A DNA stretch of 54,118 nt, the filler included, from Jimgerdemannia flammicorona (Eukaryota): the NCBI GenBank assembly GCA_003990765.1. It is 3 parts of 3 records of this genome, joined end to end, with 100 filler letters (N's around TTAATTAATTAA, not from the genome) between each part and the next. Parts side by side here need not be neighbours in the genome. Positions count along the whole stretch, not along the records: positions 36,150 to 54,118 come from RBNJ01002346.1; 2 more parts are not named here. One strand, 5' to 3'. The translations under genes and the position numbers were made by a program. Position 1 is the first letter of the stretch. Each line of letters begins with the position of its first letter. The notes beneath the pieces are model-generated. The model did not search any database and was not told the DNA's origin. It saw only the letters and a program-made list of their open reading frames with translations. Below, piece after piece: positions 11,667 to 49,954 of this stretch.

Positions 11667-11722
<56 letters not shown>

Positions 11723-14326: not shown

Positions 14327-14371
<45 letters not shown>

Positions 14372-14485: not shown

Positions 14486-15049
14486 TTTGAGCTAAATAAG
14501 TAAGTATATATATTATCTATATATTTTATACTATTTCCTAAAGTAAAAATAGGTAAATAAAAAAATAAATTCTGAAAAATTGAATGTCTTTACTAAGATA
14601 ATTTAAGAACTACTTCTATTTATTTTACAAGTTTTCATATTTATACTTTTCTCTACTCTTTTGTTAAATAATAAGAAAATATAATATTTTTATATATTTG
14701 ATATAATTAAATATTCTCCAGCTTCTAAGTTTGGACCAGTATATAGATTCTATAAGAACTACTATTTTTATTATTAAGTTTAGCTAAATAACTAGAAGTA
14801 TTACTAAACTACTTATCTAGATATTCTAAAACTTATAGAGAAAAGATTTTACAACTCAGATATTAAATATACTCTTACTATAGTAAATAAATATATAAAA
14901 AAATATATAATAATAAACTAAAGTAAGAAATTATAAGAACAATAGATTATTATATATATAATAATTATATAATATCGACTTTATTATAAATATCAAAGTA
15001 AGCATATAGCTTTCTCTGGTAACATTCAGGTTATATAATCTTTTAGTAA

Positions 15050-17965: not shown

Positions 17966-17976
17966 TTTTTTTTTTT

Positions 17977-18076
17977 NNNNNNNNNNNNNNNNNNNNNNNN
18001 NNNNNNNNNNNNNNNNNNNNTTAATTAATTAANNNNNNNNNNNNNNNNNNNNNNNNNNNNNNNNNNNNNNNNNNNN
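17977..18076. other. Assembly gap with artificial linker (44 N + TTAATTAATTAA + 44 N)
   Basis: Exactly 100 bp with a stop-in-all-six-frames spacer; an identical structure occurs at 36050-36149. Confidence 0.95.
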
Positions 18077-18288
18077 TATAAAAACTAAAGCTTAAGTAGA
18101 AAGGATCTTACCTTATACATACAAAATATAAAAAAGACTACTTTTGGCTATAAAACTATTAGATATATTATCCCAACTATTATCTATCAAAACTAACTCA
18201 TAACTAACCAATAAAGTACTACTATAGCTCTCAAGATTACTAGTACTATCCAGTAGACTAAAAAAAGACAATTTTGTTCTATTGAGTC

Positions 18289-28000: not shown

Positions 28001-28593
28001 TAGGGCTGTAGCAGGGCCTTCTTCAGGTTCAGGGTCAGGTAGTTGATGAAGGGTTTCTCTTGCTTCTTCTTTAAGAATATGGCAGATCTTGCTATTCTGG
28101 AATCGATAGTATAACATGGTCTTGGTCCTGGTACAGTGAAAGTCAGTAGAGTTGAGCCACTTGGCTACAGAGGCCTGGGCTTCATGAGGAACTATGGCTA
28201 GAAAGACTGCTGCTGGTTGTCCTAGATCACTCGGATTTGTGGAGCTGACAAAACTCTTGTTGAGAAGAGTAAAGAAGGCTTCAATAAGACCTTCTTCATC
28301 TTGACTTGCTGGGTATAGTACAAGGAGTTTGGTGAATAGGGTTTTGCCTATTTGCTGATTTAGTTGGAGTACTTCTTTTTTTGAGTGAAGTTTGTCCCAC
28401 TTGTTATAGGTGTAGAGGTCAAATTGTCCTTATACATTAGGTTCAATTCTCTCCAGATTGTTAGATGGTTCAGGATAAATTCCAGTTCAGGGGTTGGGCT
28501 TTATACCAACTTGTAGGAATTCTCAGAAGGGTTTATAGTGGGGTGAGAAAGCATCTTGAAGCGGAATTGGATTGTAAACCACTGCTACCAAGT
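22080..28593 (-). mobile_element. Gypsy family A internal region, copy 1 (chromovirus-type; gag-ZnK-dUTPase-PR-RT-RH-IN-chromodomain), pseudogenised
   Basis: Zn knuckle CFYCQKTGYMASAC (~26640-26685); dUTPase AAGYDLY..RSSL..GGVIDEDYTG..GSKGFGSS (26155-26560); protease IDSGASGNF (~25860-25890); RT VYIDDI (~24825); integrase GPFE; chromodomain EEYKVEQIL..YLVKWKDY..TWEP (22505-22680). Confidence 0.92.
28579..28590 (-). promoter_or_regulatory. Primer-binding site of family A, initiator tRNA-Met-like
   Basis: rc TGGTAGCAGTGG lies 3 nt inside the LTR boundary; TGGTAGCAG matches the iMet tRNA 3' complement. Confidence 0.7.
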
Positions 28594-30824
28594 TGTAGGA
28601 GGTTTGCTTTTTTAGGTAACCATTACGTAGTTCTGGAAGGGTTTTCTGGAAGTTCTAGATATTCTGGAAGACTGTTTTCTTATGGTCAAGATCAATTTCA
28701 TATGGAGTATGTCCTCTATGCTTATTGATTTCAAGTTTGGGTTGACATCTCAACCAAAGTCCTTTTTCGGACTAGTTCTGGATGTTCAGGATTTTCCATA
28801 TTTCAGGAAGTTCAAGAAACTAAGACCAGCTTAGTTGAATTGGCATATCGCTGTAGACGATACCCAATTAAGAAATTTCATAATGGGGTTAGGAGTGGGA
28901 CCTAACGGGGAGCGGATTAACTTAAGAGTGGTTTGTGGGTTATTAAATAGATTTATTCATTATTCATGATATTGTTATACTAGGAGTTGGTTGTGTGAAG
29001 GGATATTATGGAAAAGTACTTAGGAGTTGTGTTCAGATTGTTCAAGTGTTCAAGTCTGAGATTCTGAGATCTGGGGAAGGGGGTATTTATACTAGTGAGG
29101 GGCTATCTGGACTATACTGAATATGGATATAGCACTAAGTGCCTTACTGAGTTGGAATACAGTCACATAGTACAAGTGTGATCTGATATATCAAGAGATT
29201 GTCTGACTGCTGAGTCAGTTCACAGTCACGTTGTACAAGGCTAATCTAACTATACTATGACTGTTAGGCTATTTATAGGTTTAGGCACTGTCTGGATAGT
29301 CCTCAATGACATTACTATTAATTGCATCATCTCTGATGAAGTAATCATCTAGGAAGAGTGGTTCGCAGATTACTTCTCCTTATTTGCTGAGGTAATAATA
29401 CATTGGAACTTCGTCTCTATCTCACAAGATGGTATCATCTGTCTCATATGCTGGATAAGATGTTGGTGGATAAAGGAGCAGTACATTGTCTTCACTTTTA
29501 TTGGTTTCGCTATCCACATATCTTCTATAGATTACAGCACTATGAGTCATGGAGTTGTAGTAAGCTGACAGCTGTGGTTTATGTTGCTCGTACTCAGGTG
29601 GTGGAGTGGTTGGTTCAATCTCAAGAGTTGTCTGGAGGTACAGGTTATGTTCTCCAGTCTCTTCATTATAGTTGAAGTAATCAGGAGTGAATACGGGTTA
29701 GTATTCATGCCAGTGGTCATTGTCCCAATAGTCTCGTATGTGGTTATGAACTGTTGTAAGTTTATCGGCAAGATTGGTGGTATAATTAGTATTGGTAGGG
29801 ATCCTTGGCTTGGGGTCATATTAGTGTCAGAGGGATCATTGTCTTCTGCTTCATCTTCATCGAACTGGATTATATCATAAATATCCTTCATAGTATATCT
29901 AACTTGGGTATTTACAAGATGTGGTTATTGGGGTATGGGAAGGTTCTGTCTGTAGTTTCAACGTACTCGAGATACTTGTGGTTGATTTCTTATATCATGT
30001 CATCGATTTGGCTGTAGGACAGGGTAGCAACCATTTCACTAGTAGTAACTCAGAGTCAGGAAATAAAGGTGCTATACTCATAGAAGAGTTCTCAGTATTT
30101 GCAGGTGATGAGCTTCTGGTGTTGGGACATCTGGGTAATGTCTGTATCATGGTGATGTTCAACCATATCTTCCAGGAGACAGCCAATCTGATAGTAGCTT
30201 GAGATTTGTCCAATCTGGTGGGCCTTGTTAAGCATGTTTAGGGCATTCCATCGGGCTTCCACGAAGTAAAGGGATGCTAGGCTATGGATATTCATCAGGG
30301 GTAAAGGGGGTGTGGCTCAGTTGACAATGGCATTCCAAATGTCAGCACAGATTCAGTTATAGATCTTGGTGGTCATGTTTGTGTATTGGAAGTTGTAGTT
30401 TGTTATTTGTTTTGGTTCTCTGTTTTGACGCATCTCGGTGCTTGGTATATATGTATTTGGTCCTGATTGGTAAGATTCTGTTTATGTGAATCTTGTATTC
30501 TGTGACTTTGTATTGACTCAGCTTTGTGCACTGTGACTTCAGTTTGACTCAGCTTCATGATCAAGTAGGTGGTTTCCAGATTTGTTCAGAGGTCATGTGT
30601 GATTTCAGTAGCTTGTTCAGAGGGTGATATGTGATTTTGGTGGCTTGGAGGTTGTGTGCTTATAACTTCATATTGACTCAGCTTTGTATGCTGTGACTTT
30701 AGTTTAACTCAGCTTTATGATCAAGCAGATAATTTCTAGATTTATTTAGCTATCACATGTGATTTCGGTGGCTTGTTCAGAGAGTGACATGTGATTTCTG
30801 TGGCTTGGAGATTATGTGCTTACA
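28594..30824 (-). repeat. Family A shared central LTR (2231 bp): 5' LTR of copy 1 and 3' LTR of copy 2
   Basis: PBS on its left, PPT (rc AAGAAGGAGAGAGT) on its right. Contains the U3 ORF at 29281-30376 and a ~155-bp duplication near 30510-30820. Confidence 0.9.
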
Positions 30825-33800
30825 ACTCTCTCCTTCTTAGCTTTCAACATCCTCATCAGGGCCTTCTAATTTATTCTAGTATTGTTATACCATTTGGGAG
30901 GTCAAAAGTCTGATGAAGTCCATTTTTCTCAGAAAGTGGTATGCTTGTAGTACAGTTGCCTAACGTATTAGATTCATATGTTAAAGGATCATATGTTCGA
31001 TGCCATATACTAGAAGTGATTCTGATATCATTTACTGCTAGAGAATTTCCTCTAAAGAATCTTCTTAAATATCTATACCTCATTTCCCACCAGTGGTATG
31101 GAGAGAATAGGCTTGCTTTCAGTTTTGCTATTTTTTCAGAGGATCAGTATTCTTTGTCTTGTCTTGCTGAGTTCTTGATTTTGTTTGTAATAATTATAAT
31201 GTTTGGAAGGATAATATATAGTATATACTGGTAGATGCAGAGTATTTGGTTTTAGTTGTTTAAGGAATCATATTCCTAAACTAAGTCAGTAGCATTCTGG
31301 AGATTGGTCTTGGATTCTCAGGTTGCATCATGGATTGGGTAACCTTTCTATTTGACAAGGTACTCAGGGTGATTCTTGTGGCTATGTTTGTTGAGGACTT
31401 GTTCAACTTCATATTCTTCTTAGTCATTAATAATGACAGGTACAGGTGGTTCTGTAGTTTGGTTTGGGAATAGCTCCTCATCATTCTCATTATATCACTT
31501 GAGACATTGAACATTAAAGACTAGGTGAATCCTAATAGTATCTAGTAGTGCCAATTTATAGGAGATCGAGGAGACCTGTGCAATGACTTCAAATGGTCCA
31601 ATAAACTTACTATTCAGCTTTGTAGATGATCTGTGCTTGAGGTTGTCAACTTAGTATCCTTGGATGTCTAGTAGAACTTTTTCTCTAATATCAAAGATTT
31701 CTTCTCAGCAGTATTGGTTAACATACTGTAACTATTATTCTTGAGCTTGTGATAAATTCTCGATTGTGATCTGGCTTAGATTATGCATTCAGAGCAGGAA
31801 TTCTTCAACAGCTTCGACTGTGGAGGGTTCATCAGTAGTTCAGATAAGTATCAGAGAGGTGTTTGGGTTTTGTCCAGTATTAGTAAAGAATGGGGTCATT
31901 CCAAGAGAGGCTTGCTTGCTGTTGTTGTAGGCAAACTCAACTATAGTAAGGTATTCATGCCAATCATCTTGTCTGTAGAAAACATAGTTCCTTAGTATTT
32001 GTTTCAGAGTTCAGTTCATTCTTTCAGTTTGGCCATCAGTTTTGGGGTGAAAGGCTGTGGATAGTGCAAGTTTTGTTCCAAGGTATGCATGAAGGACTTT
32101 CTAAAAATGGCTGGTGAATTTTGGATCTCAGTTATTAACAATAATTTTAGGAAGACTGTGATAGTGGAAGATGTTGTCAAACAAGAGTGTAGCTATGTCT
32201 AGTACTGTTGCAGTAGTGGTAGTTGGCATGAAGTGGGCTTATTTGCTGAGATAGTCCACAAAGATAACAATTACATCTTTTCTATTCCTAGTTCAGGATA
32301 GTTATATAATAAAGTCTATAGAGATTTGTTCCCAATTAGCAGATGGTACTGGGATTGGATGGAGTAGGCCAGGTTTTGCTAGTGTTGAGGACTTGTTTCA
32401 TTGGTAGTCATCACAGGAAGTGATATAGGTCTTTAGCTGATCTGCCATACAGGGCCAATAGAAGTTTTGGGAGATAATTTCATAGCATTTATCAAATCCT
32501 AAATGTCCAGCTGTAGGGGCATCATGACATTCAAATAGGATAGTCCTTTGGAGGTCTCAGTTGTTTGGAACATACAGTCTGTTCTTGTAGTAGATAGCAT
32601 TGTTCTTCAGTTAGTATTGGTGGTATTGGATATACTTGTCAGCATTATCACTGCTTAGGATTTCTTAGAGTGCTTGAGCTTCCTTATCATTAGTACATAC
32701 TGTGATAATTTGTTCTATGATAGTGTTGGTAACCAAGGTAAGAGTTTGGATAACTTCTTCAATGGATGGTCCAGAGATTACATCAGTAATAATGTTTTCC
32801 TTGCCAGGATAATACTGAATTTTGTAGTCAAAGTTGGTGAGGACTTTCATCCATCTGGCTTGCTTTTGAGAAAGAGTAGTCTGTATCTTGATGTTGACTA
32901 ATGACTTGTGGTCAGTCAATACAGTGAAGTGTGCTCCTTTTAGGTATGGTCACTATTTGATCAGAGTGTCTACAATGACTAGTATTTTCTTCTCGTGGAT
33001 TGTATAGTTGATTTCAGCATCATTGAATTTATGGGAGTGATAGGCAACTGGGTGTCCTTCTTGCATGAGTACTGCTCCAAGGGCTAGGTCAGAGGCATCA
33101 ATAGTAATTTTATATAGTAGGGCAGAGTTTGCCACTTGAAGTACTGGAGTAGTTATCAAGGCATCTTTCAATACTTGAAAGGCTGTATCTTATTCAGATC
33201 TCCAATTTACAAGATTGTTGAAGTCTTTCTCTTGTTTCATGGTCTAGGGTTATTCTTCTTTCTTGCTGTGCTTGGTTATTTGAGTAAGGGCAGTAGTAAT
33301 TTTGACGAAGTTGGCAACAAATCACCTGTAATAGTTTGCTAATCTCAGGAATGACTGTAGGTTTTTCAGCTTCTTAGGTCTGGGCCAATCTTTAATTGTG
33401 GAGATTTTGCTAGGGTCCACTTTGATTCTATTTGGAGTGACAATGTGTCCAAGAAATTGGATTTCTTTCAGGAGAAATTCACATTTGCTGAGTTTTGCAA
33501 AGAGTTGGTTTTCTTGAAGTTTCAGTAGTACTAGTTCAAGATGTTCCAGATATTCTTCCAGGGTTTTGCTGAAGACTAGAATATCGTCAATATAGATAAC
33601 TACAAATTTATCCAGGTATAGGTGCAGGATAGTATTCATCAGGGTCTGAAAGATTGTTGGGGTATTAGTTAAGCCAAAAGACATAATTAGGAACTTGAAG
33701 TGTCCATAGTGGGTTTGGAAGGCTGTCTTGTAGATGTCTTCTTCTTTCATAGCAATTTGCTAATAACCATTTCATAGATCAAAAGAGCTCATGAATTGCA

Positions 33801-36040
33801 GGTTGGTAAGCCTATCGAATATTTCATCAATTCTGGGTAGTGGGCAACAGTTCTTGATGGTCTGTTCATTGAGATCTTGGTAATCGATATATATTTGCAG
33901 ATCTTCTTCTTTTTTGACAATAAAGAGGACTGGTGCACCATAGAGTGATATACTGGGTCTGATGAATCCTTGTTCTAAGAGCTCATCAATTTCTTTCTTG
34001 AGTGCATCAATTTCTCTCAGAGACATGTGGTAGATTGACTTGAAGGCTTGCCTTGTATCTGGGATAGTCTTGATGGTATAGTCTACTGCTCATTTAGGAG
34101 GTAGGCCTTTCGGAAGCTTCTTTGGAAATATGGCTCGAAATTTCTGGAGTAGTGGTCTGACATGGCTATCAACTTTGGAAAAGTCTTCTGCAGAGTTCTC
34201 GGGTTCTCCTTTGGATAGATGGATGGAGATGGCAAAGAGAGGACATTTCTTGGCCAGTTTCTTGAGTTGTAGCTTATTGATATGAGTGATCTTTGGTCCA
34301 GGGTCACTAGAGTTGAGTGGGTCCTTTTTATCTTGCAGTTTGAAGTTGTGGTGTCCTTTCTTGATGGTTAGAGAATGGTTTATCCAATTGATTATGGGGT
34401 TTTCTTATTTCAACCATAGGGTTCCAAGAATGATCTCATTATCAGGTAGTGGTATGATCTGGAGGGTAATATGTACTTAGTAGTCACTAATTTGGAAGGG
34501 CAGATTGTGGACTTCCTTGCTAATAATATATGAGGTTCCATCAGTTATAACAACTGCTTGAGTTTGTTGTACTGGAGAGGTAAAGACCTTGAGTCTGTTG
34601 GCTGTTTCTTTATTGATAAAGTTGCCTGAGGTACTACTGTTTATTATAATCTTGACAAGTGCTCAATTGACAAAAGCTTGAAGTGTAAGCTGTTTGTCTG
34701 ATCCAATAGTGGTGATTTCAATTGTAGGGGCTTTCCTTCTATTAGTTCTTCTTTGAGCCAGTTCATTGATACAAGAGAAGCAATCATCAATTATTCAGGA
34801 AGAGTACATTCCAATGCCATGGGGGCATCAGCCACTTAGTATATATCCATCTTCAATTTTCTTATAAATTGTTCTTCTTTGTTCATAGTAGGTTGGGCTG
34901 GAGCCTTGTTTAATAAGCCAAATCTTTTAGATCCTTGGATGGTGGGCAGTAGTTCAGAGACTTCCTTGACTGTCAGAGTTGATTTGATTTTTTTGAATAG
35001 GATCTGGGCAATGCAGAAACCAATGGAGATCTTGAAGGATGTCTAACTATGGTTTCAGATGAGGACAATAATTTCACCTATATAATCTTTATTAATGACT
35101 CCTCCTTCTACTGAGAGTCCTTTCAATGCTAGGCTGCTGTGACAGCATATTCTTCCAATATATCTTTCAGGGATTTGTATGCTGATTTCTGTGTAGATTT
35201 ATTTGACTTCTCAGTTGGAAACTGTAGCTTCTTCAGCTGCATACAGGTCATATCTAGCTACCTTTTGACTTCCTTTGGTTGGGGCCTTGGCAGTTTGCCT
35301 TAACTTGACAAAGTCCAGTGTTCTGGTAGTCAGAATATTGAGGTGGTGTAGAGTAGTAACAGTTGCTCATATTGCTGTTCAGGGTTTTCAGTTGGGGCAG
35401 GCACTGGCCATGTATCCTGTCTTTCAGCAATAGAAGCATACTCCACTTCTTTGAAGTTCATTTCTTTCTCCTTCAGTGAGTTTCTTGAAGGTACTCAGCT
35501 GGGTGGGTTCCTGATTTCTGGATATCCATGAGGTGGATGTAGAGGGAGCTTGGGATGCTTCATGCTTGAGTTTTTCTTTCTTAGTCCAAGTCTTTTCCTT
35601 GTTGTTAAATTGTCTTCGAAGCAGAATTGGTCTAGCTGTTAAGATTCACTTGACCATAGTCTTGATTCTTGCTAGGCATCATTGTTGGTGATCACAATCA
35701 ACTGGGTGGCCTTGTTCTCAGATTTTTCTAGTAAGCCATTCAGGCAGGGCATCAAATAAATGATCTGCTCTTATATCATTTTGTACTTTATCAATGGCAA
35801 TATATCCTAGGCCAATGGTGTTCAGAAGTGACTCAAGTTTTGTATAGAAGGTTTCAAATTCTTCCTTGCCATGTATATCAAATTTGAGGTTGTGGAGTTT
35901 TACTTGAGATTTAGTAATTATGGTTTCACTGCAGTATTGAGCAATCATGAGTTGTTTGAGTCCAGGGGCTGCAGGATGGGCTCTATATCCTGAGGCATTG
36001 TTTGCTACATTCTGAGTAACTACTGCAGGTCAAGTATCCC
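30825..36040 (-). mobile_element. Gypsy family A internal region, copy 2, truncated in gag by the gap
   Basis: Colinear with 22080-27280. RT ORF 33322-33750 (IYIDDI), RNase H 32953-33171, dUTPase ~34915-35320. Confidence 0.92.
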
Positions 36041-36049
36041 TTTTTTTTT

Positions 36050-36149
36050 NNNNNNNNNNNNNNNNNNNNNNNNNNNNNNNNNNNNNNNNNNNNTTAATTA
36101 ATTAANNNNNNNNNNNNNNNNNNNNNNNNNNNNNNNNNNNNNNNNNNNN
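36050..36149. other. Assembly gap with artificial TTAATTAATTAA linker
   Basis: 44 N + 12 nt + 44 N. Confidence 0.95.
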
Positions 36150-36159
36150 AAAAAAAAAA

Positions 36160-37247
36160 AAGGATACTGGAAGAATTTGATATCACTAGGATCTCAGAGT
36201 AGAAAGTTCAGGACCATGAGCTTCATCCTCATTATCACTGAAGGAGACAAGATCCATGAACATTTCATCTATCTTATCATGTAGGCCATGCAGTTCGCAT
36301 ATGTCACACAGGATGTTGTCATCACTGATGATATCATCATATTTGGCAGTAGTAGGGGCTCTCCAATCTATAACATTCTCTTCTACCAAATAAGGAACAA
36401 ATGTAGAGTCTTGGGAGATCTAACCTGGATGCTGGAGCCTTGGAATACTGAGAGCAATCTTTGCAGAAACTGCTCTGAGTTGTCCTAGAGGATGGGATAT
36501 CAGAACTCTTCTACCTCATCACTATTGAGAGTGATAGTAGACTGGGCTTCTGTAGCCACTATGACTTCTAGTACATTGATACAATAGGCTGACAGATCCC
36601 TGAAGTCTGAGACTCTAGTATACTCCAAGTTGGGAATTGATCATAGTATATGTCTGAAGATCTGATGAATCTTCTTAGCTATTCTTATTTCATATATATC
36701 CATAGAAGTGGTATCATATAGCTCTTGAGGACCAGCTTGAGGGAATTCCTAGCAGAGGAGATTTCCTATTTTATATTCTTGCAATATCTGGAGACATTTG
36801 GTAGTAATAGTGATTCTTGTTTCTATCTCACAGTGGTAGAGAATATAATGATAAGAGTCACCAGTACTCAAGTTGACACTAGGAGTTCTTGTGGTGCAGG
36901 TCCTTACAGCTCTTTGGATATCTTAGAACATTCTTTCCTAGACTGAGGGGCCTTAGTACTTCCTGGACCTTGAGATTTGGTGAGCAGTAGGTATTTTGTT
37001 TGTGGTAAGTCTTTTGAACTATTTCTGTGAACTTTGTTTGGATTGCTACTACTGCAGTTTCTTGATCCTTCTTTTATATTCCTCAAGATGTCTGTCTTGT
37101 GGTTACAATGACTCACAGTTGGTCATTATTGCTTATCTTGTAGTCTGGGTGAGTCATGCCATATAATCTTCTTGTACTCTAATCTGGTGACTTATAATGA
37201 AAGACTGTCTCCCATACTAATATCATTATTCTGAGGTCACTGTTACA
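36160..37247 (-). mobile_element. Probable LTR fragment of a fourth family carrying a decayed accessory ORF
   Basis: rc starts TGTAACA at 37247, at a sharp composition boundary. TGACTCA/TGAGTCA sites near 37110 and 37150. Translation LQILQEYKIGNLL..IRIAKKIHQIFR..IPNLEYTRVSDF resembles the family A and B accessory ORFs; acidic tail ORF at 36186-36389. Confidence 0.55.
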
Positions 37248-38359
37248 ATATATAAAAACTAAGAACTCTTTATAAATATAATATCTTTATTCTCTATCTC
37301 TAAGTCACTATTACTAAAATGATTATTACTCTGATCTATAGCCTAATTAGTAATATAATATAAAAACCCTTTCTGAAATATATTAGTAATATATAATAAA
37401 TAAGTATAATGATAAATAAGTTGGCTTTAAAGAAGCTAGGAAAGATAGACTTATATATTTTCAGTAAGAAGTACTAAGTAAGAGTATTGTAAGATAATAG
37501 AGTAGTTGGGAAGCTGAAGATAATTAGTAATATAGTATCAGTATCAGTATTAGTAGACCTGTTGCACTTGTTCTCAGAAATATCATATACATAGCTCATC
37601 CTCCTCTATTTCAACTATCTGCTCTCTCTTTATTATTTCTAATATCTCAAACTGAACCTTATATACTCCTTACCTTTATAATCTCCATAACTCTTCTTTT
37701 TTAAGTATTGGTCCTTACTATATAATTCTTTTTCTTCCAGATCTCAAGTATACTATCATCATAGATAGTACTTCCAAATGAATCAAATCAAATTAAGGAT
37801 TTTTCAATTCAAATTGAGTTTGAATTGAATTAAGTTCAATTGAATTGAGGTCTGATTTTAAATGATCAAATCAAATTGAGGGCTAATTTGATTTGAAATT
37901 TGAAATACAATAACTCAATGAAAATATGTCCAAATTAATGAATATTAGTATTTTGGATTTGTCTTGATAAGGTGAAAATACAATAAAGGTCATTAAATTT
38001 GGATATGTTTTCGAATTTCAAAAATTTTATTATTGAAATTTAAAGTTAATAGCTTATATCAATCTTTTATTTATTATTCAATATAATATATTCAGTACTT
38101 ATGATACTTGCCTGATACATTCTACTCATCAAATATATTTCACTTACCCAATATATTTCACTCACCTGATACTCAGTATCTAGCAGCATGTCTGACTGCA
38201 GCAATAGCTAACTGACAGAAATTGTAATTATGCCTTTTTCTCAAAAATAGATCAGAAGTCAATAGGTTCAACTTCTGGTAAATTTTAGAGAGGATACTGC
38301 AAGTCTTCCCATATTATCTGCAATTATTACAACTGATCCAAGGATGGCCTCTTGGCTTT

Positions 38360-38590
38360 GAGGTGGCTGGGACAACTGGGACTAGGAGAGCTGGAGCTGG
38401 GGAGGCTGGGGCAATAACTAGGGCCCGAATGATAACTGAGGCTAGGAAGATAACTGGGGTAATAACCAGGACTGAGGTGATAATCAGGACTAGAGGGGTG
38501 ACCAGAGTGGTGATTACAACTAAGGTGATAACTGGGGCTGGAGGGGTGACTGAGATAACTGGAAGGATCAGGATAATAGCTGAGATAAAT
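38360..38590. repeat. Degenerate ~18-bp minisatellite
   Basis: Units like GGTGATAACTGGGGCT recur; the spurious translation is SPSYHL-like hexapeptides. Confidence 0.55.
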
Positions 38591-39321
38591 CACTCAATTA
38601 TTTTATAAATTATTTTCTTCTTCTTTATATGTTCATCTTAAGTAGTATTAATTTCATCAGTGGTCACCCAAAAGGATATTTTGCCAATTACATGGTTCAT
38701 ATCTTTGAAATAATTTGAAAGGTAGTTGAGATGAGCTTAAATATATATTTTGTTTTGTTTTTATTAGATTTTTTTTTTTTTTATTTTATTTTTTTATTAT
38801 AGATGATAGCTTAGATAGCTTATTTATATATTTTTAATACCATACTAACAAGCAAACCCTGAGAGCTTCAAATATAGTACCAAGGGTATAAGCAAGCCAG
38901 AAGATGGTACTAAGAGCTATAGTGACACAACTAGAGCTTCAAATATAGCTGAGAGCCATGGTGATGTAATTAGTGAGTAAGCTCAAAGAGCTTTGAATAT
39001 GGCACCAAGAGTATAAGTAAGCCAGAAGATGGTACCAAGAGCTATAGTAATACAATTAATGAGCTAGCCCTAAGAACTTTGAATATAGTGGTATGTGTAT
39101 TTGAAATCATATTCAAATATTAAGATATATGAATATATTTATTTAGTATTATAAGATTAAACTATATTTTGAGATATTTTGACTATATTTGGAGATTTCA
39201 GAATTGGCCAGCTTATTGCCATACCTTTAAACATATATATTTACAAATTGTTTCAGAGTTTAAAGTGTCTCTTTTAGATACCACAAAATCTTTATCTCTT
39301 GAAAAAACTCTCTCTATAGAT

Positions 39322-39779
39322 TGTAATGTAGTGGACGCTTACTCTTGAAAGTATGTCAGATTTTGGTATCTTGAAAACTTGACCATTCTGACTCTCGCAG
39401 AGTCTCTTGAAGTTGTAGAGGAGGGTGGGTGAGTTCGAAGTGTACCTGGCCGCAGGCTTACTAGTTCCTTTGCTATCTCTTTACTTTGAACTATTTCAAT
39501 CTGAGGTTTATTCACTTGAAGATACTGGGTTATTTATACAAGTTTGCTAGCTATGAGAGAGTGGCTAAGTAATAAATGAGTCATTTGGACTTTGTCAAAA
39601 CATTTGGACAATGTCTAAATGCTATACTAAATCAGGATGTTCGATTTGGATAATGTCTAAAAATTTAGACAATGTTGAAATCAAAGACTGCTAACTATAA
39701 GGCTATACTACTTTGGGACTGGGTGCGATCAAGTGTCTATTCCCTATTTCCTTCTTCCAAATTTGGCTATACTATCACA
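39322..39779 (-). repeat. Family B 3' LTR (458 bp)
   Basis: Direct repeat of 45565-46041; TATAAATA (rc) at 39531-39538. Confidence 0.93.
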
Positions 39780-39816
39780 ACTTCCTCCTGAATAGATGGT
39801 CTCATCCCTGGGGCAT

Positions 39817-40278
39817 CTATTCAAACTCCCAGGCTTCAACCATCTATATGGTCTTGTACTGTGCAATTTGCTGCATGACTGTTTCCCAATGATGTCTTCT
39901 CACTTTCTCAAAGTCAGTGGGGGTTACTTCTCTCAGGTGGTCTATCGCTGGTTCATCTTCTCAGAATAACTTGTGGATCCTTTTGACAATAGTGATCTGT
40001 GAGTAAGAGAGTTGACACTCGGCAATCCAGTCCTCCTTGGTCTTTGCTGGATCCTGATTGAGCACCTGTCCAAGCTTGAAGTACTCTTGGAATTCTGTCC
40101 GATATTGATAGGCTCTAAAGTGCAAGATCCAAGAGAGATGAGTCTGCACAATACTCTGAATATCCTCATAGTATGCCTCTATGGTTGGAGGCTCGGTGGT
40201 GTGCCATTGTCTTTTGATGGCTCTTTGGGCAGCACTAGTGATCTTGAGTGCCATCACAGTACTTTTGTTACTGGCCAT
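39817..40278 (-). pseudogene. Extra ORF in the env position of family B (~140-150 aa when TGA/TAG stops are read through)
   Basis: 105-aa ORF 39961-40278 continues past TGA as EDEPAIDHLREVTPTDFEKVRRHHWETVMQQI. No signal peptide or TM segment seen. Confidence 0.65.
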
Positions 40279-43200
40279 GATATTTCTTGAGTTGGTTTCG
40301 GTGAATAGTAGTGGGGATTATTGTACCTGAGGGTTTTCATAGCCAAAAGGTGGTTCCTTTTATATCTTGCACAAGGTAAGGTCCTTCCTACTTAGGCTCC
40401 AGTTTTCGTGACCATGAAGCTTCTACCATATTCCAATACACTAGGACCTTGTCTCCTATCTTGATAATCTCCAAGAGCTTGTGGGTCGTTTCTGCATTCC
40501 TCTATTGTAGTGTCTGTGCCTTGGTTATGTAATCCTCAGCCTTCTTCCTGATTTGGTATAGTCTCCGTATTTCCATGTCCACATGTTTCCATACAGCATC
40601 TCTATTAGATGATAGGGTTCCTTGAGAATATTCTTCTCCAAACAGAATTTCTCAAGGGGTAAAGTGGGTACTTTGTGATCAGATATCCCAGAGAGCAGAT
40701 AATGCTATTGGCAAATAGTGATCCCAGTTCTCATAGTTATCACAGATTTTGGCGATAACATTCTTGAGGGTTTTGTTAGTTCTTTCTACTTGTCCATTTC
40801 CTTGGGGGTGATAGGCTGTGGTCCGAATGTGCTGGATCTTGTACTTCTTGTAGAGAACCTCAAAGAGCTGGTTCACAAATTCTGTTCCTCTATCTGTAGT
40901 TACTTGTGTTGGGGTCTTGAACCGGCAGATGATTTCCTTGTGGAAGAAATCGGCGATTGACTGTGCATTGGCTTCCTTGAGAGGTCCTGCTTCTATCCAC
41001 TTCATAAAAAGGTCTACAATGATAATGATGTATCAGTTACCAGTCAGGGTCAAGGGTAGAGGGCCGATTACATCCATTGCTATATGGGCAAATGGTACTG
41101 GTTCTATGTATGCTGATCCTGGGGCTTGATTCTGTTGGTCTTGTTTCTGTTTCTGGCATTTGTCGCATGTCTTGACAAATTGTCTGATATCTTCCTCCAT
41201 CCCTGGCCACCATATTGTTCTTCTTGCCTTGTCATATGTATTCATTCCTCCTAGATGGCCAAGTTCATATACTGATTTCATTGCTTGCTCCTTCTTGTGT
41301 TCTGGTATGACCAGTAGTTTTCCTTTCTTCAGTGTTTCTCTGTCAGTTTCGAATTGTTTCCATGTTCTGTTGATAATTGTTTGTGTCCATTCTTCCAGAT
41401 GTTGGGGCATCTTTCACTGTCCCAGGTATGTGATAATTCCATAGTAGAGCTCCATATTCTTGATTGATTTATTGGTTGGAGGTAGTTCGAGGTGTCTGTG
41501 AGAGAGCATCTGCATTGGAATTTGTTCTTCCTGGGTGGTATACGATGGTTACATCATAGGCTTGTAACTTCATTATCCATCTGGCATAGATTCCCTTAGG
41601 TTGTCCAGTTGTCAGTAGCCAGGTGAGAGCTGAGTGGTCCATCTGGATGGTGAAGTATCTTCCGGCCAGATAGTAGTGGAACTTTTCCACAGCCCAGATA
41701 ACTGCAAGACATTCCAACTTGTAGGACTCGTATTCTTTTTCAGCCCCTCCGATTCCATGGCTAAGATATACAATGACATACTCTTTTTTGTCTTCTTTTT
41801 GAGCTAGGACTGCTCCTAGTCCCTGTGCACTTGCATCCATCTGAAGGATAAATCCTTGGGTCCAATTGGGTCGTCTGAGGATGGGTGCCTGAGTTAGTCT
41901 GATCTTGAGTTCATCAAATGCTTTTTGTTGTCTGCCAGTCCACTGGAACTTGGTATCCTTCTTGTTGAGTTCATAGATTGGACCTGCGATGTTGGAGAAT
42001 CCTCTAATGAATCTGCGATAGTAGGAGGCAAGTCCCATGAAGGCTTGGGCTTCTGTGACAGTAGTGAGCCTTGGGTATGCTGCTACTGCTTATATTTTGA
42101 GGGGGTCTGTGTGTGTTTCATCTCGATTGATAATATGGCCAAGATAGGAGATCTTGATTTCTGCAAACTTGCACTTCTTGGATTTGATATAAAGGCCATG
42201 TTGTCTTAGTCTCTCCATTATCTGCTGTATGTGCTGCAGATGTTCCTTAGGTGTCTTGTTGTAGATGATTACATCATCAACATAGACCATCATCCATCTT
42301 TCCATATCATAGTGGAAGATTTTGTTCATCATTCGCTGAAAGCTTGCTGGTGCATTGCACATTCCAAATGGCATTCATAGGTAGATGTAGGTTCCGTCTG
42401 GGGTGATGAAGGCTGACTTTTCACTTGCCATCTCTGTGAGTACGATTTGGTGAAATCCTGAGTATAAGTCCAAGGTACTGTAGTACTCTGCTTCATCTCC
42501 CAGTGTTATAAGGATGTCACTGATGAGCAGCAGTGGTTGGCAATCCTTCTTGGTAACTGCATTGAGCTTTCTGTAGTCGACACAGAGCCTTGGGGCAAAT
42601 TCTCCAGGTTTGCTTCCTTTTTTCGGGGCTAGTACAACTGGTGAAGACCAGGGGCTGCTGGCTTCTTTGATGATGCTGGCTTCTTCCATCTGCTTGATTT
42701 CTTCTCTGAGCCATTCTCGGTAGGCTGGTGGGACAGGTCTTGCCTTCTGATAAATTGGTTCGGTGTCTCTGGTATCTACCTCATGATAGTAGTGTGGGGT
42801 CTTTCCCTTGATATCCTTGAAATCCATGGCAAGGACATCCTTGAATTTGTGAAGTATTTTCTTGAGTTCCTCCTTGAGTGGGAATTTGTCTCCAATGGTG
42901 TAACTGTGCTTGCTTGTGTTTTCCTCCTTCTTATGCTCGAGTTCGGTGATCTTGGTGCTGGTGAATACTCCTCTTCCTGTGGATCCAAATCCTTTCTTTC
43001 CTCTTTTCGTTTCCTCCAGATTCTTGACTTCTATGATCCTTGGCTGTATGATTGGGAAGATCAACATCTGTGCTAATTGGTCCTTCTTCTTGACTGGGAA
43101 TGGAAATGTAGGATTGTGGTTCCTAGCAATGAGTAGAATTTCTCCAATATGGTCTAAATCAATGACTCCTCCTTCGATTGTGATTTCGCTTCTAGCCAGG

Positions 43201-45564
43201 CTGCTTCTTGTCTTGAGAATCCCGACATGATCCTTTGGGATGGTCATCTCTAGTCCATTTGCGAGTAGAGTGGTTGTCTGGGGTTCAAGTACAGTTTCTT
43301 CTACTGTAGCGATGTCCATTCCTGCTGCATTTTCTGATTTATATTCTGGCAAGACTGCATCAGGGTGGATCTTTCGAATCTTGACCTTGATTTCTTCTTC
43401 ATCATCACTGTCCGCCAGGAGGACTGGTGGTTCATCATCTTCCTCCTTCTCTTCTTCCCTGATCTGTTTTTTGAGAGATTTCTGCCTTCTTTCCTAGTCG
43501 ATCTTCTTGGTTCCGATGGTGCACTGGTAGCAATCATTGATATGCTCCATACAGTACATCTTGATTCCATGAGGACAGACTCCTTGTGGGGCATAGCCTT
43601 CTGCAATCTTCTTGCATCATTCTTCTTCACTCATCCATCCAACTTTCTTCTTCTTTGGAATAGTCACCATATAAGCTTCCTCTTGCTCACTCTCTTCTTC
43701 CTCCATATCAGGCAGGACTCCTTTGTTGACATTGATGGGAATTCATATCTTCTGTCCCCGGTAGGTGATCTGCATCTTCTGAGCATTGAGATTGATTACC
43801 ACCTTGGCTTTGTGAAGCCATTGATTGCCGATGAGGATGTCATAGTTGGTGGCATTGGTTATGATTATATCTACTGGGATTGTTGCTCCTCCGATCTTGA
43901 TGGGAACATCTTGGATCTTTCCCTGAGGTGTGGCTCTTGTGCCATTAGCTGTGATGAATACTAGCTTAGTTGCTTCTTCCACATCCCAACCTAGGTGGTC
44001 TGCTGCCTTCTTACTGAGGAGATATCCTTCTGCTCCCATATCAATGATGACTTCAAAGGTTCTATCTTCGATTTGGCATATTGCATAAGCAGAGGTTTTA
44101 TGATTGTCCTCACTTTCTTCTCCTGAGTCCTCTTGAACATTATTGGCCTCAGTTATCTTCCATCCTTATTCCTTGGTTGTTTTGGCAAGTCCAAACCTCA
44201 TTTGCTGTCTGAATGTTGGGATTTCTGCGAGCTGACCAAAGGTTGTATTGACCTTTTGTTGACAGAGATCCTTGAAGATATGTATCATACTTAAAGGTCT
44301 TGGTCTTGCAAAGCTTCTTTTCTTTTTCTCCTTCACTGGCTGGAGTGGTTCCTCAGATGATATCTTGAACTGCTTGCTCCAGCTCAATATCTTGGTCCAT
44401 CTCTTCAGCTTGGCTTTCTGTATCAGTTTTCATCCACTTTTCCACTGGGTTCTTCTTAGGTCTTCCTGGTGGTCTCTTGTAGGGTTCTTTGTGAGCATCC
44501 TTCTTGGTGGTCTGAGCAGGATAGGCCTCCCATTCCTCTTCATCAGATTCTCCAATTTCTTCAAAGGTGATTATATTGGCCTGCTCCTTGTTTCATGTGG
44601 CATTGCTTGGTTGAGCCTTGCATTTGGTTTCACTCATACATTCATAGGAGTAGTGGCCTTCTTCTCCACAGCTGTAGCAAGTACCTTTCTTCTTGTCTGA
44701 GGTGGCAGCAAACTTCTGAACAGGGTGGCAATTACTTCCTCGGATTTCCTTTACCACATCTCCCAGGTGGGCAGTCATTTCAGCAAACCTTTTGGCGAGT
44801 TCCTCCATAGGGTCACTGTTCTTTTGCTGCTCTGTAGCTTTTGGCTAAGGTGTGTTTCAATTGATCATTATGGTGGGGATCACACTGGTTGCCTTGGGTG
44901 CCTCGATTCTGACTCCTGTAACTCTCTCCATTGTATGGTCTTGTGGGTGTCTGGCTATCCAGTATCACTGAGCATAGGTGACCTTCTGTAGCAGATCCAG
45001 AATCACTGGTGATGAGCAGATGGCCATGGCTATTTCTGGATGGACTCCTTTCATGAAGGTTGCTTCAGCTACTTGATCTCGGATAGCAGCAGTATAATCT
45101 GCAAGAATTATCTGATATCAAATTCTGGTATAGAATGTGTTTGGATCCTCGCTCATTTCTTGGCAAGTTGTGTTGAGCTGATCCTTCAGGGCTTGCTTGA
45201 TCTCATCTGTGTAATATGTATTTTGGAGCCAGGTCTTCTGTGCTGTCAGTATGGCATTGGCATCATTTCCTGCATGGGTTGCAGCTGTGAATGCTGCTCT
45301 GGCAGGGCCTCGTAGGCTGAAAGGCATGAGGGCTACTTGCTGTGCTGCTGTCAGAGTCCTTACAGCAGTATACTGCTCGAAATCGTCAATGAAGGTGATG
45401 ATTGATTTATCTGAGGTATATCCATGGAATACTGGCGGTCTCATATCCATCTTATCTGGGTATAGGGGCTCGGTTGGTATGGTTGTTCGGATAGTGGTGA
45501 TTGTTTGTTGTTCAGCTTGAAAGTGAGGGATTTGTCTTGAATCACCAGCCAATGGGCACCAAGT

Positions 45565-46041
45565 TGCAATGATACAGACACTTATTCTTGAAAGTACGTC
45601 AGATTTCTATATCTTGAAAACTTGACTGTTTTGACTCTTGCAGAGTCTCTTGAAGTTGTAGGGGAGGGTGGGTGAGTTCGAAGTGTATCTCCCCACAGGC
45701 TTACTAGTTCCTTTGCTATCTCTTTGCTTTGAACTATTTTGATCTGAGGTTTATTCACTTGAAGATACTGGGTTATTTTTACAAGTTTGCTAGCTATGAG
45801 AGAGTGGCTAAGTAATAAATGAGTCATTTGGACTTTGTCGAATCATTTGGACAATATCTAAATGCTATACTAAATCGGGATATTTGATTTGGATAATGTC
45901 TAAGAATTTAGACAATGTCTAAGAATTCAGACAATGTCGAAATTGAAGACTGCTAACTATAAGGCTATACTACTTTGGGACTGGGTGCGATTAAGTGTCT
46001 ATTCCCTATTTCCTTCTTCCAAATTTTGCTATACTGTCACA
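45565..46041 (-). repeat. Family B 5' LTR (477 bp)
   Basis: Repeat of 39322-39779 with one extra 19-bp GACAATGTCTAAGAATT unit. Confidence 0.93.
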
Positions 46042-47348
46042 AGATGCACTTGTAACTGGGATAGCTAAATAGTTATGTATCATTTTTGCTAGATTTGGGT
46101 AATCTCTGCTATAACTCTAATATTTCTAATAAATTAAATCAAATTAATAATATTTCAAATTAGACCAACTTATTTGCCACTAAGATAATATTTCAACTTC
46201 TAGTTGAAATTTAACAGTTTTACTTTTCAAATAATTATCTAACTCTTCTTCAAGATTTGTTGTCAGTTTTTGTCTTTTGTTGTTAAATATATATTCAGAT
46301 AGTTCAGCAATATCATCAACATTGACATCATCTCCTATTTCAGTATAATCTTCAGAACTTGCATGATAAACTGATAGAGGGATATAGTTTTCATTATAGA
46401 TTGCATAAACAGTTATTTCAGCTACTTCAATCCAAATAGTTTCCCAATTATAGGTTGAATAATATTGTAGTTTAAGTCTGGAATCAAGAACTGGTTTTCA
46501 TTCAAAAAATAAAATAAATTTCGAAATGAATTCATAATTCAAAATGTTGAAATAGTCTTCAGTAGTAAGCAAATTTCGAAATATTTACTTTCCAGTACCA
46601 ATATAATAAATTGGACAATCTGTCATGGAATAGTAATTTTTCAACTTATCAATAGCTGTTATTAGCTCCTGTTGAATGAGAGTATTTAGCTCTCTAGTTT
46701 CTTCTGGTTCTGCTATACAATTTTAAAATACTTTGATATTATTCTTTAACATATCTAGTAAAAGTTGTAAATTTAGATATTTTTGCCAAGTTGCAAGATC
46801 TGTTATATGTTGAAAACTCTTTAATATCAAAATGATATCTTTTAGCAACTGCCAAGTATAATCTCTAATGGCATATGTATTATCCTAAATATTTATTAGC
46901 TATAACTATTAAATTTAAGAGCTATTAATAAAAATTAATTCATTAGATTATACTCAGATATAATTACAGACCCATATCTCCCATATGCTCAACCAACAAA
47001 TAAAATATAATTAAATATAATTACCTCTGATAATTTGATAACATATTCAATTATTGAATATATTGAGTTCTACTAAGTCTTAATATCCAAAATAAGTTAC
47101 TTTAGATTGTTGATTCTATAGGCTTTACATTGTGTAATAAATCTCTTACAATACTATAGTAATGTCTAGATCTTGCTAATACTTATTCAGAGATTTAAAA
47201 TTATTTCTCCATCATTATCAGCCTTCAGACAGATTAAAAAGCCTTAAACAGCCAGATTAATAATATGAGCTATACAGTATATATATTATATTAACCGATA
47301 GTTGAGGCCATGATCAAACTCTATTCTAATTGTTTGAAAAAATATATT

Positions 47349-47533
47349 GGTCCAATTCAAACCCTATTTTTAGAAATGTAATAACTTGGCAAATATATAT
47401 CCAAATTCAATGATCTTTAGCTTGTTGGATTCCTTTATATGTATAAGAGAAATCTAACAAGTGAAAGATCATTGACTTTGGATATATATTCATCAAGTCA
47501 TTAAATTTCTAAAAATAGAGTTTAAATCAGACT
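47349..47533. mobile_element. 185-bp foldback MITE inserted in the hAT transposase, 3-bp TSD ATT
   Basis: About 70-bp inverted arms (GGTCCAATTCAAACCCTATTTTTAGAAAT vs rc AGTCTGATTTAAACTCTATTTTTAGAAAT). Removing it restores DNTSNNNIFF. Confidence 0.75.
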
Positions 47534-47609
47534 ATTATTGTTAGATGTATTATCTATTGTTATAGTCAATATTTAGACTGAAAAATCAATAATTTGAAAT
47601 ATAAGATAA

Positions 47610-47800
47610 CTATTTTTCAAAAATTCAACCTTTATTGCAAACCCAATCATTTTCAAAAACCTGAACCTTTTTTGAAAACCTAATCTTTTTTGAAAATAAC
47701 CCAACCTTTTTCAAAAACCCAACCTTTCAATTTTTTTTAAAAACCTGATCTTTTTAAAAACCTGACCTTATTTAAAAATCTGGCTCTTTTTAAAAGGCTC
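47610..47800. repeat. ~20-bp tandem array (AAAAACC..ACCTTTTT) within a putative hAT transposase intron
   Basis: About 8-9 imperfect units between rc donor-like gtatgt/gtgagt (~47800-47817) and rc acceptor tttttcag (~47578). Confidence 0.6.
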
Positions 47801-48663
47801 ACTCACTCTTTACATACTATTGTCTATATACCAAAATCTCCAATATAGCTCCCAAAGACATCAGTAAAGTTTTTACAAGAATGAGATTCCAATAGCTTAA
47901 CAAAATCAATCAATATATAATTGAGTTGCCAATTTTGACAAATCTAATATATATTAATTCCAAGAAATGTATACATATTCAGTGATGTCTATATATTAAT
48001 AGTAAAGAATATTCAGTCTAGTATATACCATTTTGAAATAAATTAAATCAAAATGAGATAAATTTATAATATTGGAATTGATATTCAAAGTTAAATATTT
48101 GATCTTATCTATAGTGTAATTTTGACAGCATTATGATTTCTTTGGAATACTAGTTTAATTTTACTTGATATATTTCCAGCAGAAGGAATAGTAATATTTG
48201 ATTTCAGAAGATAAAAAAGGTCTCTCTGCTCTAAATTCTCAATAACTATAAAAGGCTGACTATTATGAATAATCTAGCAAACAAGTATATCTTGAAATAA
48301 TTTCATAGAAAATCTTGGCTTTTAATATAAAAGGGAAATATCAAATAGCAATAAATTAATAAGAAAAAAAAAAAAAAAAAAAAAAAAAGAGCAAAAGAAT
48401 AATATAAAGACTATACTTTTAAGAAAAATGATTCTATTACTCCTGCTTGATGACTTTTGTAAAATTTGTCAAAATATATCTATAGATTTATTGTAGAGCT
48501 ACTAATAAACTTATATATCATTTTATAGTAATTATATTTGACTTTTCTGATATCTCCATTATTTGTATACTCTTTTATAAACTCTTTCCAAATACTAGAG
48601 CATTCTTGCTTTTGCTTTTCCTTTCTTAGACTGTTGTGTTGAGACTATACTTATTGTAGCTAC

Positions 48664-49954
48664 TGTGACGAACCAGAATGTATTACCTGAATTATACCTT
48701 AGCCAGATGACGTGAATACACAGCATAGTAACCAGCAACCATTGCTGCAGAAACTGTATAAATAGCCAGATTACCAGATAAGGTATATCTGTGCAGGACC
48801 TGCATACCTGTGCCGGACCTGCACACTTGTGCTGGACCTGCACAACTTGCCATAGATAGCAAATCTATGGTTAGCCTCATGGTAACCAGATGGCAACCAA
48901 CTTGTATAAATTACCCCAGAGACAAGAGTGAATAAACCTCAGTCCGAAAGTTGAATACAAACCAAAGCAAAAGTCAATTGTCTGGTACACTTAGGAGAAA
49001 CGCCTGCCAAAAGCCACTTGATCCAGGAAGGATTGCAACACTTAGGAGATACGCCTGCCAACGAGCCACTGCCAAGAAGTTGTGAGCTTGGTTCTCTTCT
49101 CTTCCACTCTGGTCCACTTTCTGATACAAAGCTGATTTTGCCACCAAGTTCGAGTAAAGAACTTCGCCGCCTTTGGAACTATTGGTATGCTTGCCAGATA
49201 AGCCTGAAGTTTGCCGCCCAAGTTCAAGGAAGAAATTTGCCGCCGTTTCCCAGTTAGAAGCCCGCTGATTCGGGAAGAATCCGAGCTATCCGAGTTATCT
49301 GCGTCACCCGCCGCTTTTGAGTTATCCACCGTATTCCCAGTTGAAGCCAAAATCTGCACCATCCGAATTAATTCCCAGTTAAGCCGCCGTTCCCAAGAAG
49401 CCCGCCAAATCCGCATCATCCGCCGTTTTCAAGTTGTCCGCATTCCCAGAAAGCCTGCGTCACCTGAGCTATTATTCCCAGAAGAGCCCGATTCGCACCT
49501 TCCGAGTTATTCGTCATTCCCAGTGAGCCCGGTATAGAAGAATCTGCGCCATACAATTCCCAGTAAGCCAAATTGAGTTATCCACTGAATTATCAGAACA
49601 TCCGCATAAGGAACCCGCCGCGCTACACAAGAGATCGTCATGCAGAAATCAGAGACCGTCACCCAAGAAGGAGAACCGCTAAATTGCCAGACTGTCACGC
49701 ACGAGATCGTCGCACTACACAAATTCTACCATTCCCAGTTGACCCAAGAAGGAAGTCCATTCACACACAAATCGCTGCTACACCCAAGAACCTGTCCCAA
49801 AAAGGAAACTGCTCGCACAGTATCCAGATCTTGACTATTATACCGCTAAACACCAAGAACATTTTGTTGCTTTTGACAAAGTAACTGGGGGCTCAAGCCA
49901 AACTACATCAACCCCCAACCTTGTAATTTGCCTCCATTGAGCCGGCACGTTACA
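48664..49954 (+). repeat. Family C 5' LTR (1291 bp)
   Basis: TGTGACG...CGTTACA terminal inverted repeat followed by a PBS. Internal 19-bp repeats GTGC(A/C/T)GGACCTGCA x3 at 48791-48848. Only one LTR lies in the window. Confidence 0.8.

Follow-up and report, generated by a model that had tools for sequence, protein, structure and literature searches.

A 54,118-nucleotide stretch of DNA from the fungus Jimgerdemannia flammicorona (GenBank assembly GCA_003990765.1; hereafter the window) contains three kinds of protein-coding segment that we read, at a probability of roughly 0.65, as decayed copies of one unnamed family of soluble, all-helical proteins, encoded by the last, 3'-proximal gene of dUTPase-bearing Ty3/Gypsy retrotransposons. 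In one carrier, family B, the segment is a third open reading frame (ORF3) at the end of the integrase gene and ahead of the polypurine tract (PPT). In the other carrier, family A, it appears to lie past the PPT, inside the long terminal repeat (LTR) and probably within its unique 3' region (U3). The remaining copy is a detached fragment, F. The family itself and its placement in the LTR of a chromovirus are new, and extra ORFs in retroelements and genes in U3 are already known as a kind.

The carrier elements and fragment F

Both carriers are Ty3/Gypsy elements, with gag, protease, reverse transcriptase (RT), RNase H and integrase in that order, direct LTRs with TG...CA ends, and a PPT plus TGG-type sites resembling primer-binding sites at the LTR termini. 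Pfam matches in the carriers include RVT_1, RT_RNaseH and rve. A dUTPase is located between protease and RT (PF00692, E 4.3e-24 in family B), and a tblastn map of pol placed dUTPase-homologous segments in both family A elements as well as in an element at 53.7-54.1 kb. The pol segments of A and B share only 27-40% identity, and their integrases 27-31%.

In family B, the ATG of ORF3 stands 8 nt ahead of the integrase stop codon, and the end of ORF3 is followed after 37 nt by AGGAGGAAG and TGTGA, the PPT and the LTR start. No chromodomain was seen in family B, the integrase of which terminates at an SH3-like region. Nine public proteins are homologous to B-type ORF3 (83-153 residues, 61-78% identity), and one of them, P0006, is complete at 153 residues. 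A metagenome contig, L001, carries a near-intact family B element with an open pol frame of 940 codons; its intact 153-codon ORF3 shares 44 nt with the integrase end and is followed by a PPT and a TGTGA LTR start as in the window. When the window copy of ORF3 was compared with that of L001, the proportions of nonsynonymous (pN) and synonymous (pS) sites that differ were 0.20 and 0.82, a ratio of 0.24, and six gag-pol segments gave pN/pS ratios of 0.155-0.25; synonymous sites are saturated, so these proportions are quoted instead of the substitution rate ratio dN/dS. Because its pN/pS ratio is like that of gag-pol and the L001 copy is intact, ORF3 is a real gene of the family B element, constrained about as strongly as the protease-dUTPase-RT region and under purifying selection like pol.

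Remnants of further B-type ORF3 copies were seen elsewhere in the window. A B-like fragment at 18081-18286 on the plus strand comprises the integrase end and the ORF3 N-terminus at ~70% DNA identity to family B, and it is severed exactly where family A LTR a ends. Family A is inserted, nested, into this older B-type ORF3.

Family A is a dUTPase-bearing chromovirus, with a Chromo domain (PF00385) after SH3_Tf2-1 in both of its elements (E 5.1e-14 and 5.8e-09). Its two internal regions, on the minus strand at ~36040-30825 and 28593-22080, are 86% identical to each other and alternate with long repeats a, b and c of 1.7 to 2.2 kb. Both regions close with a conserved PPT (AAGAAGGAGAGAG and AAGAAAGGGAGAG) followed by TGTAAG, the repeats finish in CCTACA, and repeat c is followed by TGGTAGCAG, a primer-binding-like site that we take to be initiator-tRNA-like, and then by an open frame of 177 codons. 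From the PPT and TG start, the CCTACA ends and the primer-binding-like site, the repeats are read as LTRs of about 2.1 kb, with a 5' boundary that we infer. LTR c is shared by the two elements: it closes the upstream one as its 3' LTR and opens the downstream one as its 5' LTR.

Each family A LTR holds a 128-codon ORF, which starts 286 nt past the likely LTR start in copy b and 448 nt past it in copy c, where a 160-nt duplication intervenes. The ORF stands upstream of CACTAGTATAAATACCCCC, a TATA-like motif kept in all three LTRs, with GAATAAA 134 nt further on. This position upstream of conserved TATA-like and AATAAA motifs suggests that the ORF is located in U3. One intact A-type homologue, P0015 (128 residues; 86% identity over 90% of the query), was found. 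The start and stop positions of the ORF are kept in all four sequences, the three window copies show no insertion or deletion across 3 x 384 nt, and 91-97% of the differences among them are transitions (53/58, 52/58 and 37/38). Their stops fall at seven codon positions, six of which are Arg and one Trp in the intact protein. Taken over the whole family, all in-frame stops of the window copies lie at Arg, Trp or Gln positions of intact homologues, so the ancestral frames were open before transition-type decay set in.

Other peculiarities of family A were noted alongside. The tandem duplication of 160 nt near the 5' end of LTR c (30505-30827, minus strand) contains short AAGCTGAGTCAA/GAAGTCACAG-like repeats. 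Directly 3' of the shared ORF, a second open frame of 125 codons (29547-29924, minus strand, with counterparts in LTRs a and b) has an acidic stretch at its start and no Pfam match. The ~400 nt between the chromodomain end and the PPT (22095-22495 and 30840-31240, minus strand) hold a nearly open frame of ~130 codons with two stops in one copy, also without a Pfam match; this stretch could be no more than a spacer, or it could hold an additional ORF that fills the true env slot of family A. Family A has decayed (18287-36040) almost purely by transitions, with stops at Arg positions of the CGA type, and over 14-36 kb the GC skew of the plus strand is strongly positive. Both features fit deamination of methylated CpG or a process like repeat-induced point mutation.

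Fragment F has a core with three stops, a frameshift near 36410 and a long acidic tail. Two intact F-type homologues (69-73% identity) were found; against the intact P0016 (215 residues), F is 72% identical over residues 1-139 and 51% over 139-207. F starts ~340 nt after TGTAACAGT, which resembles the family B LTR start TGTGACAGT, and on account of this LTR-start-like sequence F is probably LTR-borne too. An inverted A-like LTR fragment breaks off 6 nt from the TGTAACA on the F side. The window consists of three pieces (1-17976, 18077-36049 and 36150-54118) joined by two artificial linkers, so that adjacency across a linker, such as that of F and family A, is not biological. F sits at the start of a separate assembly piece, with neither an adjoining pol nor a second LTR of its own, and would represent a third lineage. 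Nearby, 38215-38337 on the plus strand matches the family core weakly (E 0.18 with an all-family profile; tblastn with the distant family member P0020, E 0.51); it adjoins a low-complexity repeat at 38.3-38.6 kb and is either a further decayed fragment or noise.

An earlier note, made from the DNA sequence by eye, had assigned three peptides in the interval 36400..40278 to one accessory family shared by three different retroelements in two positions. All three peptides are real and on the minus strand. The B and F strings are exact read-through translations from inside the interval, and the A string turned out to be a composite of the three LTR copies, all outside it. A and B are distinct elements by their pol sequences; F may be a third, with no pol adjoining it and a position at the beginning of a separate piece. 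Of the two positions, that of B ahead of the PPT is well supported and recurs in L001; that of A, inside the LTR and upstream of a putative TATA box, is reasonably supported as lying beyond the PPT/LTR boundary, with U3 as its probable compartment. The absence of DNA-level similarity among the three ORF regions was confirmed by blastn.

Sequence relationships and protein properties

The homology of B and F is firm by sequence comparison. None of 1000 shuffles reached the Smith-Waterman score of the two window read-through sequences (z 6.0), 1 of 2000 reached that of the intact pair P0006 and P0016, and hhalign of the two profiles gave P 1.5e-4 with 0/200 column shuffles reaching the score. A three-way homology that includes A is very probable, judging from profile and pairwise comparisons. 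Among 1.84 billion representatives, a profile of B alone picked out five proteins at E <= 0.001, namely three of B type, P0020 and P0019. P0020, a distant member of 165 residues (E 1.9e-4), was found without any A information; it aligns with the A-type P0015 from first to last residue (score 56, 0/2000 shuffles, z 5.5), with B at 0/2000 and with the F-type P0016 at 3/2000. The score of the B-type P0006 with P0015 was reached by 1 of 2000 shuffles. P0019 is a tandem-repeat protein of 455 residues in which 35 positions of the B profile match six times (E 1.3e-6), and the repeats may inflate its score.

A further profile, B+F, combined B, P0020 and F without A (alignment A6, 12 rows; the short partial matches P0008, P0013 and P0014 were omitted) and was run by hmmsearch over the window, cut into 1080 six-frame chunks. 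The A copies were the top matches other than those of B or F type, at E 3.2e-4, 0.0049 and 0.04, with noise from E 1.3. Addition of F to the B profile raised the A score from 10.3 to 16.4 bits, the latter for copy c, compared with 6.3-8.5 bits for the best reversed-sequence decoys. By hhalign, the same B+F profile matched A at P 3.2e-4, with 0/250 column shuffles reaching the score. In the opposite direction, the best non-self matches of the A profile, with the A-like LTR fragment set aside, were B (E 0.093) and F (E 0.11), and the best non-self match of the F profile was B (E 0.029). All alignments are collinear (alignment A7, 18 sequences), with the motif order T-x-x-P, ~40 residues, [YF]-x-[IL]-G-x-x-L, ~20-25 residues, I-[AV]-x-x-x-x-x-[LI]-F and I/L-x-x-L. 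The gag and pol regions of the window gave no match to a family profile at E < 1. Outside the ORF core, the sequence past the A stop was not significantly similar to the acidic tail of F (1385 and 212/2000 shuffles), and the leaders between LTR start and ORF showed no DNA similarity between A and F (251/500 shuffles).

The family proteins have 128-215 residues, a grand average of hydropathy of -0.36 to -0.59, 0-2 cysteines and isoelectric points of 4.1-7.0. None of the five proteins analysed has a hydrophobic or membrane segment, the highest Kyte-Doolittle mean over 19 residues being at most 0.71. F and P0020 have strongly acidic tails, with net charges over the last third of -19 and -13; in B only a short stretch at the end is acidic, and the A ORF has no acidic tail. 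An AlphaFold2 model was all-helical, with a mean predicted local distance difference test score (pLDDT) that rose from 51 with B-type rows only, too low for a fold search, to 63 with A and F rows included; the core, residues 40-125, reached 70-78. Pfam contained no family matching any of five members at E <= 10, and the best match of a PDB sequence profile was a cytochrome c at E 0.09. Foldseek retrieved nothing at E <= 0.001 from PDB or BFVD (query model mean pLDDT 63), and VIA-align in its wide mode gave no credible match, only helical hairpins with a best Z of 5.8. ESM Atlas lists for P0006 and P0016 held only unnamed or unrelated clusters (0.88-0.95), with DUF6192 and Translat_reg weak in both. 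Scans of viral contigs with A and with B, and of genome contigs with A and F, found nothing; three viral-contig loci from the F scan were rejected as an alternative frame within a giant-virus MutS-like gene. The protein is not an envelope protein and is not evidently an enzyme. The helical character and undescribed status proposed in the earlier note are thus both borne out, and no match to a known domain or to env emerged from Pfam, PDB, Foldseek or BFVD.

Alternative readings and possible function

Several results weigh against a single family at the 3' end of these elements. Pairwise alignments of the window sequences were not significant for B-A and F-A (33, 49, 98 and 245 of 1000 shuffles), and the best local B-A alignment was out of register. 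Among intact proteins, P0016-P0015 (247/2000) and P0010-P0015 (425/2000) were not significant, nor was P0010-P0016 (255/2000); P0011-P0015 gave 52/2000. hhalign gave P 0.012 and a probability of 3.6% for B-A, with 1/200 column shuffles, and P 0.087 and 0.7% for A-F. The database-wide B profile retrieved no A- or F-type protein at E <= 0.001, and all profiles are shallow (effective number of sequences 1.2-1.9). Confidence in the structure model is modest, and its fold matches none that is known. On the side of position, the A LTR has a 5' boundary drawn from the PPT and TG, the assignment of U3, repeat (R) and unique 5' (U5) regions uses consensus motifs alone, LTR a is incomplete, and unique DNA does not flank any A element on both sides. 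The window copies of the A ORF are all hypermutated.

These pairwise results would be expected if only B and F were related and the likeness of the A ORF to them were accidental or a product of convergent short amphipathic-helix motifs. In the same vein, tblastn with P0015 placed B and F at E about 3, inside noise, and the match was first chosen by eye, so multiple testing applies. This explanation is nevertheless improbable in the face of the B+F profile results, which separate the A copies from noise in the window and survive all 250 column shuffles, and of the end-to-end alignment of P0020 with P0015 and the P0006-P0015 score. It would also have to accommodate that the A profile, its own LTR fragment aside, picks out exactly B and F, in collinear alignments that extend to T-x-x-P. 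The profile-profile comparison with shuffled controls that the earlier note had called for came out positive for B-F and for B+F with A, and hhalign of A-F taken by itself was not significant; its broader claim of one protein family in different Gypsy lineages is upheld by the B+F profile, P0020 and hhalign.

The family may be real and yet its LTR-borne members, A and perhaps F, may be non-functional relics, an ancestral ORF3 having been swallowed by the LTR and carried along as U3. The 3-5 stops in each window A copy, the single intact A-type protein and the missing acidic tail agree with this view. We consider it rather unlikely, because the A ancestor had an open 128-codon frame, to judge from stops confined to Arg and Trp positions and the lack of indels, and because an intact copy exists elsewhere with start and stop positions kept in all four sequences. 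A somewhat less likely account replaces vertical descent by exchange between elements through template switching, or by independent capture of a host gene in separate Gypsy lineages; in bdelloid rotifers, ORF3 types common to unrelated retroelements are documented (PMC5408684). The identity of the A and B ORFs, 27% over 56 columns, is as low as that of the integrases, which fits ancient co-divergence rather than recent exchange, and no host gene family was among the five matches of the B profile. The ancient origin suggested in the earlier note agrees with this co-divergence; movement between positions by a shift of the PPT/LTR boundary is one possible route, beside exchange or independent capture. 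An envelope-like nature of ORF3, of the errantivirus kind, for which its location in the env slot of family B might speak, is most improbable: the family has no signal peptide-like or membrane-spanning segment and consists of hydrophilic, cysteine-poor proteins with an all-helical model. An errantivirus-type Env identity was rejected on the lack of a hydrophobic segment and of a Pfam match in 5/5 proteins each.

The preferred reading, a family of small helical proteins encoded last in the element, brings the two DNA positions together. The genomic RNA would run from R-U5 to U3-R, and in it the A ORF and B ORF3 alike would be the last ORF ahead of the 3' R. The two DNA positions would then amount to one RNA position and differ only in the side of the PPT, with the consequence that an A ORF in U3 would be copied into both LTRs of the DNA, the 5' LTR included. 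Retroviruses offer a precedent in sag of mouse mammary tumour virus, nef of human and simian immunodeficiency viruses and tas/bel of foamy viruses, 3' accessory genes within or overlapping U3. Sag, nef and bel are each the last ORF past the PPT within U3, duplicated in both LTRs, and encode non-structural products that are regulatory or interact with the host. The A ORF is like them in standing after the PPT and a TG start and before a conserved TATA-like motif, if the LTR 5' end is where we infer it, and differs in that its carrier is a fungal-type chromovirus without env. No likeness to Sag, Nef or Tas proteins was detected by Pfam, or by Foldseek in BFVD at E <= 0.001 with a model whose mean pLDDT is only 63.

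With a structure model of modest confidence whose fold has no known match, any account of function can only be a proposal. The protein could be a non-enzymatic accessory factor translated from the 3' end of the element RNA, in family B by reinitiation at the overlapping stop and start codons, and otherwise from an RNA that is subgenomic or internal to the LTR. Binding of nucleic acid or protein would fall to its helical core, and its acidic, aromatic-containing tail (in F and P0020, weakly in B) would recruit a host factor, in a transactivator- or adaptor-like role that promotes element expression or blunts host silencing. This picture of a regulatory or adaptor role and of its mode of expression, drawn by analogy with the 3' accessory genes of retroviruses, is tentative and rather doubtful. 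More speculative still, and improbable, is a regulator specific to arbuscular-mycorrhizal-type fungi that transactivates its own LTR or suppresses RNA silencing or DNA methylation and has crossed the PPT into U3 in some lineages. If so, each LTR, solo LTRs included, would be a self-contained gene copy acting in trans for the whole family, and retrotransposons would have a counterpart of sag, nef and similar U3 genes of retroviruses. Extra genes of LTR retrotransposons offer a rare view of how elements handle their hosts, and hardly any are known from fungi. A single family found on either side of the PPT/LTR boundary among related elements would constitute a natural experiment on the entry of a gene into an LTR, and the protein is a candidate for a factor in transposon-host interaction in fungi whose genomes are methylated and very rich in repeats. 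The family profile could help to annotate the large fraction of unclassified repeats in such genomes.

Extra ORFs of other LTR retrotransposons provide partial parallels. Those of bdelloid rotifers lie past pol and are common to different retroelement lineages (PMC5408684). They resemble the present family in their location downstream of pol in dUTPase-bearing Gypsy-like elements, in the recurrence of one ORF type across lineages and in not being envelope genes in such cases, and differ from it in that the products of rotifer ORF3s are either env-like or identifiable as enzymes (GDSL esterase, DEDDy exonuclease). The present family is small and helical, has no detectable outside relative and is LTR-internal in one lineage. 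The gene brtn of Boty/BcGypsy1 in Botrytis cinerea is likewise an extra, unexplained ORF of a fungal Gypsy element and, by the title of the cited paper, is antisense (PMC8365987), whereas the ORFs described here are 3'-terminal and on the sense strand. ORF0 of the rice elements Retrosat2, RIRE3 and RIRE8 is an orphan ORF in Gypsy elements with unusually long LTRs that evolves faster than pol (PMC3485330); it is a plant ORF upstream of gag-pol, and the present family is 3'-terminal or in the LTR. Searches of the open-access literature found neither a description of the present family nor any fungal retrotransposon reported to have a protein gene in its U3.

Feature positions and neighbouring sequences

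Table 1. Positions of features along the 54,118-nucleotide window.
Feature	Position	Strand	Remarks
B-type ORF3, C-terminal piece	325-445	+	heavily AT-mutated; 15-16 bits with B profile
Kelch-repeat frames, host-like	2054-3197	-	Pfam
Kinase domain (tyrosine-kinase-like), host-like	5308-6252	+	Pfam
RING-IBR protein, host-like	9220-11823	+	Pfam
Artificial linker 1	17977-18076		44 N + TTAATTAATTAA + 44 N; homopolymer runs on flanks
B-type ORF3, decayed N-terminus	18200-18286	+	within B-like fragment 18081-18286
Family A LTR a	18287-20000	-	lacks about the first 155 nt; abuts 3' end of LTR b
Family A LTR ORF, copy a	19867-19484	-	128 codons, 5 in-frame stops
Family A LTR b	20001-22079	-	starts TGTAAG at 22079
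Family A LTR ORF, copy b	21793-21410	-	128 codons, 3 in-frame stops
Family A PPT of LTR b	22093-22081	-	AAGAAAGGGAGAG
Family A LTR c	28594-30824	-	160-nt internal tandem duplication; TGGTAGCAG adjoins 3' end
Putative TATA and AATAAA, family A LTR c	29091; 28957	-	
Family A LTR ORF, copy c	30376-29993	-	128 codons, 5 in-frame stops
Family A PPT, upstream element	30826-30838	-	AAGAAGGAGAGAG
Artificial linker 2	36050-36149		identical to linker 1; homopolymer runs on flanks
Fragment F	36928-36186	-	core 36928-36509, long acidic tail after core
TGTAACA	37241-37247	-	possible LTR 5' terminus of F-bearing unit
Inverted A-like LTR fragment	37254-37367	+	74% identity to A LTR part holding the ORF C-terminus
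Family B 3' LTR	39334-39780	-	89% identity to 5' LTR
Family B PPT	39781-39789	-	AGGAGGAAG, immediately 5' of LTR start TGTGA at 39779; kept in L001
Family B ORF3	40278-39820	-	153 codons, in-frame stops at codons 106 and 145
Family B ORF3 ATG and stop	40278-40276; 39819-39817	-	ATG overlaps integrase end (integrase stop 40270-40268)
Family B internal region	40279-45576	-	gag, protease, dUTPase, RT, RNase H, integrase
Family B 5' LTR	45577-46042	-	then TGG-type primer-binding-like site
Third dUTPase-bearing Gypsy element	50277-54118	+	gag, zinc knuckle, protease, dUTPase; leaves window end

The window as a whole contains a transposon nest beside host-like genes, which together span 1029-11823, and it opens with a poly-G run at its very start. 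The third dUTPase-bearing Gypsy element runs off the other end, so that its 3' end, a possible site of another family member, lies beyond the window.

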